A stretch of DNA of 15,670 bases from a virus, in IMG/VR virus record IMGVR_UViG_3300045988_079839, positions 1 to 15,670 of that record; one strand, 5' to 3'. The stretch's first letter is position 1, and each line of letters opens with the position of its first letter. The notes under the pieces are model-generated. The model made no database searches. It worked only from the letters and a program-made list of their open reading frames with translations, and had not been told where the DNA came from. Shown piece after piece: positions 3,601 to 15,670 of the stretch. The position numbers and the translations under genes were made by a program.

Positions 3601-5217
3601 TTAGTTATTTGATAGAGCGTAGTTCCCTATATCATCAGTATGCCACAAAGTCACACCGTTGTCAAATATATTACGCAATTTCTTTAACTGGTCTAAATCA
3701 ATGTCACCTGTAAAACCGCAATGTGAGGTTTTTACATAATTCCAATACGCTCTTGATTGTAAATAAGGCGTTGTGATTTTGTTAATTGGATATCCAAATT
3801 GTTCAAAAAAACTATCAGCCATTTCTGCAAATTGTCTTTTACATGACATTTCATAGAAATCAACACCACACTCTTTGATGCCTGTCAACACGTTTTCCGA
3901 CAATGCTTTTCCGTGTGTCACTCCTGCATTTCTCGCTCTGTCTGTCTGATTGGCTAACATTCCAAGAGCGTCCCAAAAAGCGTTCGTTGTTTTGCCTAGT
4001 CCGTTAAGTCCTCCTTGTAAGCTTCCTCCTGCCAAGCCTGCTATTGCTGTGCCTGTTCCTATGGTAGCATCTACGGCAGTATGCACTTGTGACAATGCTA
4101 TAGAGCTTTTGTTTTGTGCAAGCCACGCTCTGTACGTATCAGAGGAAAAAGAACACATAGGAAAAGAGGAGTTAATAAGTGCTTCACACATTAAGCCGTG
4201 CCCTAACTCTTCGCGTGTTTTATAATTTTTAGGAGCTGTAAGAACTTGCGGAAGTGTTGCAATTGTTCCATAGCTGTCAAATTCAATAGACTTATCACGG
4301 TTATAACTATATTCATATCTATATATGTGTGTATTTCCTTGGTTGTTATCCGCTAGACAGAATAACCATGGATAAGAGTATAACTTTTTATTTTTTGGTT
4401 TATAACCCTCAAACACATTATCGGATATCTGCATAGATGTTATTTTAGGTTTAATCTCTTTTCCTCCTAACGCAAGAGTGCATAATTTTGGTGACATAAA
4501 TAAACCAATTACAGCATCTTGCGCGCCTTGTTTGTTGTAATCTTCCAACAATGTGTTAATGCCTTTTAGTCCATCTTCGCTTGTGACATCATAATGTCCG
4601 ATACTGCCCCAGCAATAGACGCCATTTTCTACGCGCCCCTCAAACCAACTTTGTTCGGCTGTTCCTCTTGTTACAAAAGCGCAACACTCTGTTGGTGTCA
4701 AGTCTAATTTTTTGTGTCGTGACACAATTGTTTCACCAGTTTCTATATTAACAGGTGTTAGATTTACGCCTATCTCGTCTTTATTTCTAGGGATATGATG
4801 ATATTCCACAAAGCAAGGCTTGATATTTGCATCATAAAAGTTGTTCTGAAAAACGTCTAATGAGAAGTTGATTCTAGTTGTTTTTTCTGAAAGCCATTCT
4901 ATTGAATCAATAAAGCAAAACACCCATTCATTAGAAATACCTGTATTCTGAAAAGCTAAATAATTGAGATTAAGTGCTTTCATTTCTGTGAACGGTACGC
5001 GGATATCATAATTTCCTATTCGAATAGGCGCAAGATGTGATAAATCAACACCGTTAATATGTTTCCGATATAACTCTAAATGGTTCAATAAGTCCTCTTT
5101 TGAGTTGTAAAGTCTAACGTGTTCGTATTCGTCCGACCACGGTACACCACTATACAATCTTAATTTTGTTTCGGGGTTGCGTGGTGCAACCCCTCCTTGT
5201 GTTGGTAAATTTATCAT
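3601..5217 (-). CDS. Tail knob protein (phi29 gp9-like)
   Basis: The C-terminus YWNYVKTSHCGFTGDIDLDQLKKLRNIFDNGVTLWHTDDIGNY closely matches the recalled gp9 C-terminus [42 protein letters not shown]. The N-terminus GVPWSDEYEHVR matches DVPFSNDYKNTR. Confidence 0.85.
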   Translation of the reverse strand: MINLPTQGGVAPRNPETKLRLYSGVPWSDEYEHVRLYNSKEDLLNHLELYRKHINGVDLSHLAPIRIGNYDIRVPFTEMKALNLNYLAFQNTGISNEWVFCFIDSIEWLSEKTTRINFSLDVFQNNFYDANIKPCFVEYHHIPRNKDEIGVNLTPVNIETGETIVSRHKKLDLTPTECCAFVTRGTAEQSWFEGRVENGVYCWGSIGHYDVTSEDGLKGINTLLEDYNKQGAQDAVIGLFMSPKLCTLALGGKEIKPKITSMQISDNVFEGYKPKNKKLYSYPWLFCLADNNQGNTHIYRYEYSYNRDKSIEFDSYGTIATLPQVLTAPKNYKTREELGHGLMCEALINSSFPMCSFSSDTYRAWLAQNKSSIALSQVHTAVDATIGTGTAIAGLAGGSLQGGLNGLGKTTNAFWDALGMLANQTDRARNAGVTHGKALSENVLTGIKECGVDFYEMSCKRQFAEMADSFFEQFGYPINKITTPYLQSRAYWNYVKTSHCGFTGDIDLDQLKKLRNIFDNGVTLWHTDDIGNYALSNN

Positions 5218-6521: not shown

Positions 6522-6803
6522 TTACTCTGTCTTACCGTCAAAGTCTAAATCTTCAACGGTGATTTTTTCTTCTTTTTCATCTTTCTTTTCTTCACCATTT
6601 GCGTTAGTAGCAGATTCTTTCATGCGCTCTTTAAAACGTTTTTTATACTCGTCTTCAAGTTTGATATACTTATCTTTCCATTCGCTGTCAGTTTCACCGC
6701 TTCTTTCACCCTCATAATTCTGTAAGACCTCAATAGCGTCACCGTGTTCTTCAACGTCTGCTACTGCATCAATTAATTCGTTTAAAGCTTCATTAAAATC
6801 CAT
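6522..6803 (-). CDS. Scaffolding protein (phi29 gp7-like)
   Basis: A 93-aa acidic helical protein immediately upstream of the capsid gene. Start at MDFNEAL behind AAAGGAGGA. The C-terminus EKITVEDLDFDGK matches recalled gp7 ETITIEDLEAK. Confidence 0.7.
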   Translation of the reverse strand: MDFNEALNELIDAVADVEEHGDAIEVLQNYEGERSGETDSEWKDKYIKLEDEYKKRFKERMKESATNANGEEKKDEKEEKITVEDLDFDGKTE

Positions 6804-6846
6804 TAAGATTCCTCCTTTTTTATTTATTAACCCTTTTACAGTTTCT

Positions 6847-6875
6847 ATTATATCACCACGGCAAGAAAAAGTAAA
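6847..6875 (-). promoter_or_regulatory. Candidate internal promoter ahead of scaffold/capsid genes
   Basis: On the minus strand: TTTACT (6870-6875), 17-nt spacer, TGa, TATAAT (6847-6852). The TGA stop of the upstream gene supplies the TGn element. Confidence 0.45.
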
Positions 6876-7857
6876 GAGGCATTTTTCTTTTTCTTGAATG
6901 TGGATGGATTGGGTACGGTGATAATGTCTGTAAATAAGCATACCATTTTAGCGCGTTCTTTTTTCTATCCTCTTCTTTTTCCACACCTGCACGCTCAAAA
7001 TTCTTTAAAAATACCGACGCTAAATAATCGGGTTCTTTTGTGGACTTTCGAAACTCTTCCCATGATACTGGATATTTTATTGTTTCTATCCATTGTCCAC
7101 TACTTACGGTTTCTTCATCAAGCCAAACACATTGATAATAACCATCTGTGATATCGTACCCGTGAGCGTTCGCCCAATCTGTATAGACTGTAGCTGGTGT
7201 CCACTGTACAAGACCATAGCCACCATTATAGTTCCCCTCTTTTAAGGACTGCCATAATTCGGGGTTGATATTAGATTCTATCTCCATATTCCCCAACATT
7301 CCTGCAATGGCGTTCAACGTGAAATCTTTGAAAAACATGGTACTATAGAAAACATAAGCATTGTTTTTCATCTCATCTTCTGTAAGATAACGGTTTCCAT
7401 GAATCCATTCAAGGGGCCCTGCACTGTCGCCATAACGATATATCTTTGTCCATGCGGACGGTTTGGAAACATATGTATTAATGCTGACCTGCTCGGGTAA
7501 TGGATAACGCCCACTGTGCGCTCCCATAGTGACACCGCCACCCCCAACACCGTTCCCACTATACACCATTTCTGTATGACCACTACGCCATACAATGTCC
7601 CCTGCCTGCCAAGCCTCATTGATACTAATCTCTTTAAATCCTGCCTGTAATAGATATCCCTCTTCTGTTCTTGTGGTGAACCATGGGTTCACTGAAAAGA
7701 ACCCAGCTTCTGTAAGTGCTTTTGAAATAAAAGAGCTACAGTCATAATAAGTAATACCGTTCACGGTCTGCCCTCTTCGGTATTGCTGAGAATATCCAAT
7801 GTTGGGGGCATTGCACGCATTGACCGCCCACTGATAGGCTACATTAATATTTGGCAT
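6853..7857 (-). CDS. Tail-associated peptidoglycan hydrolase: N-terminal NlpC/P60-type cysteine peptidase + C-terminal phage tail lysozyme domain (functional analogue of phi29 gp13)
   Basis: YDCSSFIS (catalytic Cys context) and SGHTEMVY (His) resemble NlpC/P60. GMLGNMEIESNINPE...GGYGLVQWTP resembles the phage tail lysozyme domain. This is the only gene that ends in TGA. Confidence 0.7.
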   Translation of the reverse strand: MPNINVAYQWAVNACNAPNIGYSQQYRRGQTVNGITYYDCSSFISKALTEAGFFSVNPWFTTRTEEGYLLQAGFKEISINEAWQAGDIVWRSGHTEMVYSGNGVGGGGVTMGAHSGRYPLPEQVSINTYVSKPSAWTKIYRYGDSAGPLEWIHGNRYLTEDEMKNNAYVFYSTMFFKDFTLNAIAGMLGNMEIESNINPELWQSLKEGNYNGGYGLVQWTPATVYTDWANAHGYDITDGYYQCVWLDEETVSSGQWIETIKYPVSWEEFRKSTKEPDYLASVFLKNFERAGVEKEEDRKKNALKWYAYLQTLSPYPIHPHSRKRKMPLYFFLPW

Positions 7858-7895: not shown

Positions 7896-7910
7896 GTTCC
7901 ACGTGAATAA
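7895..7910. promoter_or_regulatory. Palindrome site G: degenerate copy TGTTCCACGTGAATAA
   Basis: It shares the CACGTG core, 7 of 8 left-arm bases and 6 of 8 right-arm bases. Its centre lies 19 bp from the centre of site A. Confidence 0.45.
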
Positions 7911-9131: not shown

Positions 9132-9151
9132 GATATCACCTCCTTTTTTCT

Positions 9152-9180
9152 ATCATAACACAAATAGAATTATTTGTAAA
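9152..9180 (-). promoter_or_regulatory. Late (lysis/structural) promoter
   Basis: On the minus strand: TTTACA (9175-9180), 17-nt spacer, TGt, TATGAT (9152-9157). It is followed by AAGGAGGTG and the holin ATG at 9131. Confidence 0.6.
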
Positions 9181-9185
9181 TAAAA

Positions 9186-9203
9186 ATGTTTCACGTGAAA
9201 CAC
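9186..9203. promoter_or_regulatory. Palindrome site B: ATGTTTCACGTGAAACAC (16-bp perfect core 9187-9202)
   Basis: Verified by hand. It lies just upstream of the -35 of the holin promoter. Confidence 0.75.
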
Positions 9204-9218
9204 TATCACGTGAAACAT
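9204..9218. promoter_or_regulatory. Palindrome site C: half-site TATCACGTGAAACAT
   Basis: The right arm GTGAAACAT is exact and the left arm matches 5 of 9. Its centre is 15 bp from the centre of site B. Confidence 0.5.
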
Positions 9219-9337
9219 ATTGTACGTTACAAAATAATCAATGCAAAGGGAACGCAACGCCAAAAATTGATATCAGACTACTTGTCTATGTGCGTGTATA
9301 TCAATTACAATGCCCGTATTATTTTGGGTACGATATT

Positions 9338-9366
9338 ATGATAACATATATCATTTGAAATGTCAA
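9338..9366 (-). promoter_or_regulatory. Strong sigma-A type promoter overlapped by palindrome site D
   Basis: On the minus strand: TTGACA (9361-9366), 17-nt spacer, TGt, TATCAT (9338-9343). Site D overlaps the -35 by 2 nt. Confidence 0.6.
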
Positions 9367-9384
9367 TGTTTCACGTGAAACATT
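9365..9384. promoter_or_regulatory. Palindrome site D: 20-bp perfect palindrome AATGTTTCACGTGAAACATT
   Basis: An exact inverted repeat. It overlaps the TAA stop of the ATPase gene (9383-9385) and the -35 of the promoter at 9338-9366. Confidence 0.8.
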
Positions 9385-11208: not shown

Positions 11209-11264
11209 CTTGTTTTTCCTCCCTTTTTTCTGTTTCTTTGAGTGTGAATTGTAATGTAATATGT

Positions 11265-11331
11265 TTTATTTATTACATTATTATAATATCACAACAATTA
11301 AATGTAGTCAAGTGTTATGTTATAATTTTTT
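11265..11331. repeat. Direct repeat copy A of the early-promoter module (~67 bp)
   Basis: 11265-11288 is identical to 11541-11564 (24/24). The remaining 43 positions match at about 70 percent, including AGTCAAGT and TTAT..ATAATTTTTT. Confidence 0.8.
11283..11311 (-). promoter_or_regulatory. Early promoter P1 (drives the p6-like and SSB-like genes)
   Basis: On the minus strand: TTGACT (11306-11311), 17-nt spacer, TGa, TATTAT (11283-11288), then AAT. Confidence 0.6.
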
Positions 11332-11349
11332 ATTTTTTATCTAAATCTC

Positions 11350-11518
11350 TTACATATGTACTATCTGTATCAACATATAAAAACCATCACGAATAGTGAT
11401 AAGTTTAGCCGTAATCTCAGCGTTTTTTAAATTTGTGTCAGTTATTACATTACTACTATGTGACATTGCGCTTACACCGTACAAGCTGTTTAACAGACAT
11501 TTAATTTTTTTTACTCAT
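11350..11518 (-). CDS. Possible small protein gene requiring a +1 shift at an A8 run (or a homopolymer miscall); otherwise non-coding
   Basis: SD AAAAAGGAGGG is followed by ATG (11518) and a frame that stops after 5 codons (MSKKN). The +1 frame is open for 54 codons (11514-11353) and ends at TAA 11350-11352. The junction is the A8 run at 11505-11512. Confidence 0.3.
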
Positions 11519-11540
11519 CTTTTTTCCCTCCTTTTTCTAC

Positions 11541-11607
11541 TTTATTTATTACATTATTATAATAACACGGCGCTAAAATATAGTCAAGTATTATATCATA
11601 ATTTTTT
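11541..11607. repeat. Direct repeat copy B of the early-promoter module
   Basis: See copy A. Copy B overlaps the last codons of the polymerase gene. Confidence 0.8.
11559..11587 (-). promoter_or_regulatory. Early promoter P2
   Basis: On the minus strand: TTGACT (11582-11587), 17-nt spacer, TGt, TATTAT (11559-11564), then AAT. Confidence 0.55.
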
Positions 11608-13477
11608 TATCTTTTTGTGTGTGAATATTAAAGTCTTTATTTCTTAATATAATCCCACCTTTTACTCGCTCTGCTTTTAAGTTACAACTATCCATACTAA
11701 GTCCTGTAGATAACTCAGAGATATCTTTTTCTTCTTCAATAAATTTTCGCTTAGCTTGACTACTCATTCCACAAGCTTTAATATCAAGATAAGGCACACA
11801 TGGCTTATGATTTTCTTCAACTATATGTTCTGCATAAGTCTTTTGTCGCTCATAATATGCAAAATCAAATGTACTTTCACATTTCCAACAACAAAAATTC
11901 GTCGGATGTTCTACAACCATATTCGCTTTATCAAGTCCTATCAAATGAATCGAATCTGTATCCGCATAGCAAAATCGGTCATAATTCGCCATAGCGTGGC
12001 GTATTGTAAAGTTCATGGCATAAGATGTAATGGCGCTACCTATCGGGATATACCCAACTTTCTTATCATGTTCTTCATGCAAAATAAATCTAATAATCCC
12101 ATCTTCATCAAGATAAGGCTCTTTATAGGAAGAGTTATCTGACATAGCAAATTTTCCATAAAGATTATTCAAAAAAAGTTTCGATTTCTGTCTCTTAAAA
12201 CCTTTTGATATTCTCTTCTCTTCTCCATATTTATCTATATATTCATCGAAAAAACCCTCTCTAGCGTAGAACCATACATAATCATAGATAACCAAATCAT
12301 AGATATCATAAGTTTCTTGGAATAACTTCCAGTCAGTACAAGTCATAGTAAGAGTTATATTTGTGTCATGTATCTGCCCATCAATATCACGATAATACCG
12401 ATAGTATTCACCTTTATATCTGACGTTAGAGCTATATAAATTTTCATTCGCCTTATATAATGCACTATGCCTAACATGAAGTCACGGGAACGCTCCTTTT
12501 TTAAGTTGAAAACGACAATTGAATCGTATAAAAAAATATTTATTAGTAGAGCTTATAAGTTCATCGGGTGGCGCTCCCCTGTGATATTGCCCGTGACCGA
12601 ACGGATATTTGTTGCCGCTAATGCTATGCATCATTGATGGGTACAGAGAATTTACGTCAAACACTAACCCCCAACCCACTACCGTATGCGCGTATTGAGG
12701 ATTTACATAACACCACCCTCCATGATATGATTTATGAACATAATCCCACTGATTCCACACGCCTGTGCTTGATTCGTCTAAATAATCCTCTCTAATATCG
12801 GGAAATAACTTGTCATATTGTTTATTTTCGTAAAAGCCTTTGAATTCTGAGAGACAACACGAACCTATAGTTAGTTTATCGTGATTTTCATTAAACATCA
12901 TTTCTAAAGCTTCTTTTAACACTAATACATCATTTTCGATATATTTCTTTTCGTCTTCTGATATCTCACAATAAGCGTATCTCTCACCCTCATAGTCCAT
13001 ATCTAATTTTTGATGCTTTGTCCCAAATGATTTTCCGATATCTTTTAATGACGATGGCATAAGCTTTAAAGAGTTTCGAATTTCTAAAAATGTCTTATTC
13101 CATTTGAGTTTAATCCAATACCATGACCCCATATCTGATATACAAGTTTGAAATTCTTTTGAATTCATTTCTTTATCTTTACAGTGTACCCAACGCCACC
13201 CCTCTTTTAACAAAAAATCCACGATAAAAGAACCGTCAAAAGCAAGATTATGAAAGTATAACACATTGTTGCCTTTCATTGTCAAAAACCTGTTTAAAAA
13301 ATCTCTTATCGAATGAGTTATAGTGACAGTTTCTGTGTCATCGTATAAAGCCACGTCAGCACCAGACCAAACTTCTGTACTATCTTGTTTTTTACCTTTT
13401 TCTTGCTCTACTTTTTCACCCCATACCGTTGTTTCAAAATCGCACGCCCAAAAGGTTATCTTCTTTTTTCGTGGCAT
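11591..13477 (-). CDS. Protein-primed family-B DNA polymerase (phi29 gp2-like), one reading frame interrupted by a single in-frame TGA
   Basis: Motifs present: Exo I CDFETT, Exo II HNLAFDGSF, Exo III YIENDVLVL, motif A DVNSLYPSMM, motif B KLFLNNLYGKF, motif C YADTDSIH, and KxY as KTYAEH. Track ORFs 12482-13477 and 11591-12346 are in the same frame, and the 45 codons between them are all sense codons. Confidence 0.85.
12482..12484 (-). other. In-frame TGA codon within the DNA polymerase frame (context UGA-C)
   Basis: Plus-strand tca at 12482-12484. The 135 nt between this codon and the ATG at 12346 equal 45 codons in the same frame. Confidence 0.95.
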
Positions 13478-13493
13478 TTATAATCACCTCTTT

Positions 13494-14204
13494 TTATTCA
13501 TTCTCAACAACAATATCTTGTTCCTGTAGAAATACTTGAAAATCTTCTGTTGTGGAAAGAACGCCCATTCTCTGTAAAATGTTCCAAAACACAGCGTCAA
13601 CTGTAGCTTTATCCATATAAGGCTCGGTTGGGAATGCTTCCGGTTCTTTAGCATAAGTATACGCAAATAACGCTCTTTCTCTTTCTGTTGCATTTGATAA
13701 TAAAGCGTCTGTTTTTTCTCTTAACCAGTACGCTGTTTTTGGTGCAAAACTTCCTAAAGAGTCATACCATGTGTCTATAATAACTTCATAGTCTAGTACA
13801 GGTGTTGCTTCAATAACTACTATACCTGTCCTTTGTAACTTTTTCAATTCTTCAACCGTAGTATAACCTTGTATTCTAGCATATTCCTGTTCTTGCGGAG
13901 TTAATTTAATAAAAACTCTGTTTCTTTCAAGAGCGTGTTTACGTCCATATTCTTTAGAAGTTATAACCTCGCCAGTAAGCATATCAACAACCGTTGCATT
14001 TTTTCGTATTTCTTTTGCCGTCTGCTTTTTAATTCTATCAATTGAAGCTTGTGTTGGATTTTTTACTCGCTTAATTATCTTTACTTGTACACCTTGTTTT
14101 TGTTGATTTCTAACACGAGATAGATATTTAGTGTATTCGTGAGAATATTCTTTTTGAATAATCTCCGCTTTTGTTTTCTTCTTTTTAATACGCTTATTAG
14201 CCAT
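13494..14204 (-). CDS. Putative terminal protein (protein primer)
   Basis: 236 aa located immediately upstream of the polymerase, like phi29 gene 3. It has a very basic N-terminus and an acidic C-terminus. No clear sequence match to the TP sequence I recall, so the call rests on synteny. Confidence 0.5.
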   Translation of the reverse strand: MANKRIKKKKTKAEIIQKEYSHEYTKYLSRVRNQQKQGVQVKIIKRVKNPTQASIDRIKKQTAKEIRKNATVVDMLTGEVITSKEYGRKHALERNRVFIKLTPQEQEYARIQGYTTVEELKKLQRTGIVVIEATPVLDYEVIIDTWYDSLGSFAPKTAYWLREKTDALLSNATERERALFAYTYAKEPEAFPTEPYMDKATVDAVFWNILQRMGVLSTTEDFQVFLQEQDIVVENE

Positions 14205-14207
14205 CTT

Positions 14208-14402
14208 TTAGTCACCCTCCTTTTGCACTTTTCTTAAGAGTAAGCCATGCGGTACACGAGTGTACTCGATACTGTCTCCGGGGTGAATATCTAAATCACG
14301 TATTGATTCTTTTGGTATCATAACACGGGCAGTGTAGCCACCTGTTCCCCCTTTAGTGAACATTACTTTATAGCGTAATAATCGGTTTGTTAATTTTGCC
14401 AT
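14208..14402 (-). CDS. AbrB/SpoVT/MazE-type DNA-binding protein
   Basis: 64 aa. ARVMIPKESIRDLDIHPGDSIEY fits the swapped-hairpin AbrB-like motif (xxxxIPKexrexlgixxGDxve). Confidence 0.55.
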   Translation of the reverse strand: MAKLTNRLLRYKVMFTKGGTGGYTARVMIPKESIRDLDIHPGDSIEYTRVPHGLLLRKVQKEGD

Positions 14403-15519: not shown

Positions 15520-15670
15520 TTTTTATTCCTCCTTATTTTATTAGGTTTCCTTGTTTCTATAATTATAATACCACACCTCTTATTATTTATCAAGTATTTT
15601 TTGTGCTTTTTTAATCAAAAGGGGGACGTGTTCTCATTGGGAATAACGTAAGCCCTCTCCATGCTCTGTC
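15520..15670. repeat. Right inverted terminal repeat (151 bp, perfect)
   Basis: It is the reverse complement of 1-151. Confidence 0.97.
15565..15593 (-). promoter_or_regulatory. Sigma-A type early promoter inside the right ITR
   Basis: It mirrors 78-106: TTGATA (15588-15593), 17-nt spacer, TGg, TATTAT (15565-15570). Confidence 0.6.

Follow-up and report, generated by a model that had tools for sequence, protein, structure and literature searches.

Can an essential replicase gene be expressed when a stop codon stands in the middle of it? The question is raised by IMG/VR virus record IMGVR_UViG_3300045988_079839, a stretch of 15,670 bp with a GC content of 35.5% that was analysed at full length and is hereinafter designated the window. 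Its minus strand carries a gene for a protein-primed DNA polymerase of the phi29 type, and an in-frame TGA at codon 332 splits this gene into two open reading frames (ORFs). A first-pass annotation of the stretch had considered programmed or leaky readthrough, a suppressor-dependent lifestyle, a nonsense mutation of this isolate and a base-call error. The reading that we favour, with a probability of roughly 0.55, is that of a viable natural opal mutant in which near-cognate decoding by the host tRNA-Trp would restore wild-type polymerase at a reduced dose.

The polymerase frame is interrupted by a single TGA

The polymerase frame opens with an ATG at 13477 and continues through 331 sense codons to the TGA (12484..12482), which is followed by 296 more codons and a TAA (11593..11591). 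The features of this frame are as follows.

11591..13477, minus strand: full polymerase frame, 628 codons (translation; PDB 1XHX; PF03175)
12482..13477, minus strand: ORF for the 331-aa termination product, comprising the exonuclease domain, motif A and the start of TPR1
12485..12487, minus strand: CCG (Pro) codon directly 5' of the UGA (sequence)
12482..12484, minus strand: TGA in frame at codon 332 of the polymerase, arisen from TGG (Trp) through a G>A transition, equal to C>T on the plus strand at 12482
12481, minus strand: C at +4, the base after the UGA (sequence)
12347..12481, minus strand: 45 sense codons after the UGA and before the next possible start, conserved coding (LHVRHSALYKANENLYSS...)
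12433..12459, minus strand: AU-only 7-bp inverted repeat, judged incidental
11591..12346, minus strand: 251-aa ORF with motifs B, C and KxY, called as a second polymerase gene

Translation shows that the two polymerase ORFs share one frame and are separated by nothing but the TGA. The chance of 296 open codons at the GC content of the window, computed from base composition, is about 4e-10. In a phmmer search of the PDB, residues 30-618 align to phi29 DNA polymerase (1XHX, E = 5e-75), and the alignment runs unbroken across the stop. Compared with phi29 DNA polymerase (PDB 1XHX, 2PZS; PF03175), the protein has 34% full-length identity, retains all catalytic motifs and has an aligned TPR1. Both halves match Pfam PF03175, and the motifs are readable as DVNSLYPS (motif A), KLFLNNLYGKF (motif B), YADTDSIH (motif C) and KTY (KxY). 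By its exonuclease motifs, its motifs A, B, C and KxY, its TPR1 region and its significant similarity to phi29 gp2, the polymerase belongs to the phi29-type single-chain enzymes. The stop falls at the position of phi29 T302, within ...ELKEGYIPTIQIKRSRFYKGNEYLKSS... (alignment context also ...KEGYIPTIQIKRSRFYKGNEYLKSS...). In phi29, the segment around T302 is part of the TPR1 subdomain.

Downstream of the TGA, the 45 codons from 12481 to 12347 contain no stop and no ATG, GTG or TTG, and the first in-frame start is the ATG at 12346, ahead of which no Shine-Dalgarno sequence was found by reading the sequence. A GTG and an ATG near the stop are out of frame. Bypass of the stop by frameshifting was considered and rejected. 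Specifically, if tRNA-Pro slips by -1 on C-CCG, the ribosome reads GUG ACU UCA UGU UAG and meets a stop within a few codons, while the +1 frame is open for about 65 codons and never rejoins polymerase frame 0. Because there is no in-frame start for 45 codons, no Shine-Dalgarno sequence and no frameshift that rejoins the frame, there is no other route to the full-length protein. The C-terminal half of the polymerase has no alternative route either, and the stretch 12347..12481 is translatable by readthrough only. The first-pass annotation was thus correct about the single shared frame and the 45 stop-free codons up to the ATG at 12346; its matching of the junction to phi29 gp2 is confirmed by the 1XHX alignment at T302, and its claim that the segment after the TGA is coding, such that the full-length enzyme needs passage of the UGA, is supported.

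Codon 332 is TGG in relatives and carries no recoding signal

Codon 332 is TGG in 74 of 74 IMG/VR relatives, which are 62-96% identical to the window polymerase at the amino acid level, and also in a relative binned in a Clostridia metagenome-assembled genome (MAG; contig L089). The residue at the homologous position is Trp in the clade, Thr in phi29 and Phe in CS229P2, a phage of Clostridium symbiosum. A degenerate pattern demanding TGA at this site had no match in IMG/VR. Thus, the ancestral codon is TGG, which encodes a Trp that is invariant within the clade. Because the relatives carry TGG, the TGA is a mutation and not a programmed signal, and the site is not a conserved recoding site. 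Programmed readthrough, as the first-pass annotation had envisaged it, fails in the very comparison that the annotation proposed: in an alignment of homologous polymerases, the column reads TGG (Trp) in all 74 IMG/VR relatives, and TGA does not recur among them.

No dedicated signal is apparent around the codon. Folding of the 121 nt downstream is no more stable than that of shuffled sequence (z = +0.33), and 125 of 200 shuffles fold at least as well. The AU-only inverted repeat, TATATAA (12453-12459) and TTATATA (12433-12439), exists as first noted, although the stem finds neither statistical nor comparative support: besides the insignificant fold, it is not conserved in TGG relatives or in L087, a second contig with TGA at this codon described below. 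An Rfam scan (E <= 1) gave no match in the TGA region. Neither Rfam nor folding revealed a selenocysteine insertion sequence (SECIS) element, and the homologues carry Trp, Phe or Thr at the position. Selenocysteine insertion or a structured recoding signal is therefore ruled out by the null Rfam result and the insignificant fold.

The TGA allele is real and heritable

Seven named assemblies or runs contain the TGA allele, which is carried by roughly 15-20 contigs, and the exact 331-aa truncated product is encoded on 11 contigs. Contigs with the window genotype (0-1 mismatch) come from ERZ27293909, ERZ1745386, ERR527143 and ERR527120. A second TGA sub-genotype, 99.3-99.6% identical to the first, comes from ERZ791907, ERZ10620963 and ERZ19650513; its C-terminal ORF product (P0018) is encoded on nine contigs, including GenBank DAL11833.1. 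The same TGA is present in contigs L077-L083. The base is the same under different accessions and from different assemblers, as judged by SPAdes-style NODE_ names, k119/k141-style names and Logan contigs, and one TGA contig has a header coverage of 34.4.

About 60 substitutions over 14 kb separate the two sub-genotypes. Within the polymerase gene, six differences are synonymous and three nonsynonymous; downstream of the stop there are two synonymous and one nonsynonymous, and with three substitutions the ratio of nonsynonymous to synonymous rates (dN/dS) within the TGA lineage has no power as a selection test in this part of the gene. Because two diverged sub-genotypes share the TGA, the allele has been inherited through real diversification. 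The TGA allele is real and heritable. A base-call error is refuted by its presence in independent assemblies and in two diverged sub-genotypes. Among the options first proposed, a nonsense mutation combined with leaky readthrough fits best, with the correction that the mutation belongs to a persisting lineage and not to a single isolate.

The same comparison shows unusually fast change in a neighbouring gene. The 236-aa ORF 13494-14204, which lies just upstream of the polymerase gene in the position of the terminal protein gene, has six nonsynonymous and no synonymous differences between the sub-genotypes, compared with three and six, respectively, in the polymerase gene. This ORF has no Pfam match.

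A second occurrence of TGA at codon 332

Contig L087 (ERZ27297294) also carries TGA at codon 332 and belongs to another lineage; in the polymerase gene, L087 and the window share 86.5% identity. The relative closest to L087 is L013 (94%), which carries TGG. The haplotype of L087 around the stop is CCA TGA CTA CAT ATT AGA CAG, compared with CCG TGA CTT CAT GTT AGG CAT in the window, and its flanks match the haplotype of its own relatives. Recombination as the source of the L087 TGA was rejected, as it would need a transferred tract shorter than about 5 nt. All other genes of L087 are intact. The haplotypes point to a probable independent recurrence of TGG>TGA at codon 332.

TGA is a genuine terminator in the clade

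TAA closes 19 of the 21 ORFs of the window, and ORF 6853..7857 ends with TGA. The homologues of the latter end with TGA in 66 of 70 cases and with TAA in the other four. Across the clade, TGA terminates 101 of 1,047 gene ends, and in other genes it interchanges with TAA. Within genes, TGA occupies one of the 73 Trp positions of the window; among 5,486 aligned Trp positions from all fetched loci, Trp-to-stop changes occur only at polymerase codon 332. ARAGORN found no tRNA gene in the window. A recoded genome (code 4) is ruled out by the conserved TGA terminators, the single in-frame TGA and the lack of a phage tRNA. TGA is thus a genuine terminator in the clade, and the code is not reassigned.

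Codon 332 lies in a weak termination context

Pro precedes the codon (-1) at five of the 73 Trp positions of the window, and C follows it (+4) at 11; the two coincide only at codon 332. At the 101 TGA gene ends of the clade, 66 of which are supplied by one conserved gene, the following base is T in 90 and C in one. The preference for T at +4 holds in the capsid and ATPase genes too, and in the polymerase gene it is seen in five of six cases. Both TGA events at codon 332 occurred on a +4C background, which 27 of the 76 TGG sequences of the alignment also have.

UGA-C is the weakest documented bacterial termination tetranucleotide, and UGA is misread by tRNA-Trp in Escherichia coli and Bacillus subtilis (PMC5289835). 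For E. coli, PMC5289835 traces the misreading to Engelberg-Kulka 1981; for B. subtilis, PMC6316719 quotes a UGA readthrough of about 6% from Lovett 1991. A C-terminal Pro slows peptide release, according to Hayes 2002, Bjornsson 1996 and Pierson 2016 as cited in PMC7246954. PMC5289835 and PMC6316719 support the initial suggestion that UGA-C is a poor terminator and that tRNA-Trp misreads UGA. With Pro at -1 and C at +4, codon 332 combines two published weak-termination contexts.

As a separate observation, the lysin-like gene upstream of ORF 6522..6941 ends with ...Pro-Trp-TGA-T, so that this natural TGA terminator has the strong +4U context.

Other lesions in clade genomes

Further lesions in the polymerase gene were found through the protein cluster of C-terminal polymerase fragments, a route that detects breaks at about codons 284-376 only. 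L084 has a +1 frameshift at about codon 303, L088 a 59-nt deletion of codons ~325-344, L091 a TTA>TGA change at codon 340 (1.75x coverage) and L092 a GAA>TAA change at codon 345, each on a single contig. Clustering of lesions near codon 332 as a hotspot is suggestive at best. Outside the polymerase gene, another assembled clade genome, the IMG/VR relative L051, has a nonsense codon in an essential gene, namely an in-frame TAA (Lys>stop) at codon 277 of the homologue of the tail-knob ORF 3601..5217.

Two independent ENA assemblies, L085 (3710-4911) and L086, contain a perfect tandem duplication of about 1.1 kb. The duplication takes in the final 801 nt of the polymerase gene, the whole intergenic region and ~200 nt at the start of the gene that follows, and it creates a 333-aa fusion ORF that joins 67 aa of a 99-aa protein to polymerase residues ~362-628. 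It is either real or a scaffolding artefact.

The window is the genome of a phi29-like gut phage

The window has perfect 151-bp inverted terminal repeats at 1-151 and 15520-15670 and, because of these repeats, is taken as a complete linear genome. Each repeat holds a promoter-like TTGATA...TATAAT and a Shine-Dalgarno sequence ahead of the first gene at that end. Nearly all genes lie on the minus strand. Gene-product matches include the phi29 major capsid protein, the gp9 tail knob, the connector and the gp16 packaging ATPase, as well as a GH25 lysin, an amidase/lysozyme and the PF03175 protein-primed DNA polymerase. The architecture thus resembles that of phi29 in its inverted terminal repeats, phi29-type major capsid protein, connector, gp9 tail knob and gp16 ATPase, although the repeats are far longer than the 6-bp terminal repeat of phi29. 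The window is the complete genome of a phi29-like podophage.

The closest GenBank phages, Clostridium symbiosum phages CS229P1-3 together with unannotated human-faecal contigs, are only about 45% identical in the polymerase, and a megablast search of INPHARED with the polymerase gene gave no close relative. In metagenomes the clade is large, with the 74 IMG/VR loci mentioned above and 1,480 members in the protein cluster at 90% identity. Dozens of related lineages come from one IMG/VR dataset (3300045988), and many co-occur in gut samples. The phage is an uncultured, small phi29-like podophage of the human gut.

One contig seemed to offer a link to a host. L078 (ERZ1745386 NODE_1842, 28,015 nt) contains the first 7.8 kb of the window genome at 100% identity up to a junction at locus position 7762, equivalent to window position 7909, just past the GH25 lysin gene. 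Its bacterial side gives exact TrkA, TrkH and SGNH hydrolase matches to Bacteroides thetaiotaomicron. Host inference from this 28-kb contig was dropped, as its non-phage half is B. thetaiotaomicron chromosome; with a Gram-positive-type phage joined to Bacteroides DNA, L078 is most likely a chimeric assembly and is unfit for the purpose.

Three further observations concern other parts of the genome. The 64-aa ORF at 14208-14402, between the early small ORFs and the gene in the terminal-protein position, has a weak MazE/AbrB-type (PF04014) match and is kept across the clade; its product may be a small DNA-binding regulator. Non-coding gaps of some size lie at 11209-11590 and 9132-9382. An Rfam scan of the whole window (E <= 1) gave no phi29-type packaging RNA (pRNA) and no other credible family, and any pRNA, if present in the clade, would be too diverged for the Rfam model. 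Finally, the listed ORF 6522..6941 is over-extended at its 5' end (6804-6941), where it overlaps ORF 6853..7857. Relatives carry stops in the first ~46 codons, which places the true start near codon 47; because of this start, the apparent 89-nt overlap with the lysin-like gene vanishes.

Leaky decoding of the opal codon as the favoured explanation

We infer that readthrough is the mechanism by which the polymerase is made, that Trp is the residue inserted and that the resulting dose suffices for growth. A G>A transition changed UGG to UGA at the Trp codon where RF2 would be most handicapped, and the opal mutation arose in one lineage and has been inherited since. In a fraction of translation events, the ordinary tRNA-Trp of the host (anticodon CCA) would read the UGA as a near-cognate codon and insert the original Trp, giving full-length wild-type polymerase at a lower dose, while other ribosomes would terminate and release the 331-aa fragment. 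Since RF2 would have to act on peptidyl-Pro-tRNA with a C after the stop, readthrough would be unusually easy here. Because the inserted residue would be the original one, the only cost would be the lower dose and the wasted fragment. The best explanation of the TGA is therefore a tolerated, context-favoured mutation of a circulating lineage, not a designed recoding signal.

Several points weigh against this explanation. Viability is deduced only from recurrence in assemblies, and some of the named assemblies may share biological samples. The sub-genotypes have diverged too little for purifying selection to be demonstrated downstream of the stop, and the recurrence in L087 comes from a single contig without known coverage. 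At a readthrough of a few per cent, an essential replicase might be made in insufficient amounts. In addition, the leakiness of ~6% that PMC6316719 quotes is a B. subtilis value and may not be that of the phage host.

Alternative explanations

If UGA terminated efficiently at codon 332, the genome would be defective, make no polymerase and persist through co-infecting TGG phages that give polymerase, and perhaps terminal protein, in trans. The co-occurrence of many related lineages in gut samples, with dozens in IMG/VR dataset 3300045988, would provide such helpers, and the singleton contigs with inactivating polymerase lesions (L084, L088 and L092) indicate that broken genomes of the clade do assemble. 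However, a point nonsense mutant would have no replication advantage over its helper, whereas each of the seven named assemblies or runs has TGA as its assembled consensus, and the contig of coverage 34.4 is among them. Among the cluster members listed, TGA is on 7-11 contigs and any full-length variant on at most three. Moreover, the TGA lineage has diversified into two sub-genotypes and every other gene is intact, and we regard a helper-dependent genome as unlikely. A host that suppresses UGA efficiently, by an opal-suppressor tRNA, a tRNA-Trp variant (A9C/G24A, 4-bp anticodon stem) or a weak or absent RF2, is to be doubted to the same degree. Variants of tRNA-Trp(CCA) with enhanced UGA reading are common (PMC13092985): a 4-bp anticodon stem occurs in 8.9% of bacterial tRNA-Trp genes, and many carry A9C and/or G24A. 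The UGA stands specifically for Trp, and the window is poor in TGA and TAG terminators, with TAA at the end of 19 of 21 ORFs. Nevertheless, TGA is a conserved terminator (66/70 homologues of ORF 6853..7857, 101/1,047 clade gene ends) that also ends ORF 6853..7857 of the window itself, and free decoding in an AT-rich genome should have placed TGA at several of the 73 Trp positions instead of one. Both a sequencing or assembly artefact and a split enzyme are far less credible than these. Nothing specific speaks for an artefact beyond the generic error signature of a one-base difference from TGG, and the same base recurs across assemblers, accessions and both sub-genotypes, which makes it extremely improbable. 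Two products acting together (331 aa and 251 aa), or re-initiation of the ribosome after the stop, would agree with the prediction by gene callers of two ORFs that each match PF03175, but the 45 conserved codons without a start would be lost, the ATG at 12346 lacks a Shine-Dalgarno sequence, neither the GTG nor the ATG near the stop is in frame and the break would fall inside the TPR1/palm region of a single-chain enzyme; we give this hardly any credence.

In a low-GC phage with hardly any TGA and TAG terminators left, an opal codon at the Trp position of leakiest context could also be favoured and not merely tolerated, either as incipient TGA>Trp recoding or as a selected device (dose throttle or immune escape). 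We consider this quite unlikely, and so too its corollary that the L087 recurrence and the lesion cluster at codons 325-345 would mark a selected hotspot. A selected allele in the narrower sense, acting as a dose throttle, yielding a useful 331-aa exonuclease fragment or escaping DNA-targeting immunity, for example by loss of a protospacer-adjacent motif (PAM), is improbable. It would account for the same mutation arising independently in two lineages, for the other lesions at codons 325-345 and for the comparatively frequent sampling of the TGA lineage among the cluster members listed. In addition, Trp has a single codon, which leaves no synonymous escape at the invariant Pro-Trp (CCN-TGG), and UGA alone would change the DNA at this site yet still give wild-type protein. 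On the other side, TGG is kept in 74/74 IMG/VR relatives, the lesion cluster is biased by a discovery route that sees breaks only at ~codons 284-376, and L087, L088, L091 and L092 are single contigs each. No spacer of clustered regularly interspaced short palindromic repeats (CRISPR) against the region was found in a degenerate scan with the 26 nt upstream of the Trp codon, covering 185,579 GTDB species representatives (one genome per species); the scan matched only L089, the related TGG phage contig in a Clostridia MAG, and L090, a chance match in a Fusobacteria MAG. Escape from CRISPR by PAM or protospacer change is thus unsupported. Avoidance of a type II restriction site is excluded: Pro-Trp is always CCNNGG (CCATGG in L087), and the window has nine CCNNGG and two CCATGG sites elsewhere.

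Relation to known systems

Leaky opal suppression by tRNA-Trp, as favoured here, is a known process, and the best explanation of the locus is a natural example of it, not a new recoding mechanism. Like the unprogrammed UGA leak of bacteria, it would involve UGA in place of UGG, near-cognate decoding that restores the native residue, and the UGA-C and Pro -1 contexts, with no dedicated signal or factor needed. Known cases come from laboratory reporters or from opal mutants of the chromosome, whereas here the essential replicase of a wild human-gut phage lineage is affected.

In phage Qbeta, programmed UGA readthrough via tRNA-Trp, at a few per cent, extends the coat protein to the A1 protein. 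The two cases have in common a phage UGA, the host tRNA-Trp and two products from one frame, the last being a proposal here. Qbeta, however, has a conserved stop and two products that each serve a function by design, whereas the stop described here is absent from 74/74 relatives and interrupts an enzyme with a single domain chain, whose short product is presumably waste. The sus mutants of phi29 gene 2, the polymerase gene, are laboratory mutants with a nonsense codon and grow only in an engineered su+ host. GenBank V01155 is annotated 'gene 2 (sus)'. The lesion is of the same kind, a nonsense codon in a protein-primed polymerase gene, and growth would likewise depend on suppression, but the present one is a natural allele in uncultured populations.

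Recoded gut phages have reassigned TAG>Gln or TGA>Trp with phage suppressor tRNAs; they have many in-frame stops, mostly in late or lysis genes, and suppressor tRNAs are usual (Borges et al., 10.1101/2021.08.26.457843; PMC9523058). The window resembles them in its low GC content, its gut origin, its depletion of TGA and TAG terminators and its in-frame TGA for Trp. It differs from them in that it has one in-frame TGA, in an early gene, lacks a tRNA and still uses TGA to end a conserved gene.

Implications

Gene callers split the polymerase into two fragments named 'hypothetical' or 'DNA polymerase B' (e.g., GenBank DAL11833.1), and annotation and completeness tools may mis-score genomes with a split polymerase. 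If the readthrough is true, an uncultured gut host of the Clostridia type would have to misread UGA as Trp at a frequency that keeps an essential viral replicase supplied, and the allele would reveal translational leakiness in vivo under natural conditions. It would, moreover, provide a concrete case of the 'ambiguous intermediate' stage that has been proposed for stop-codon reassignment in low-GC phages.

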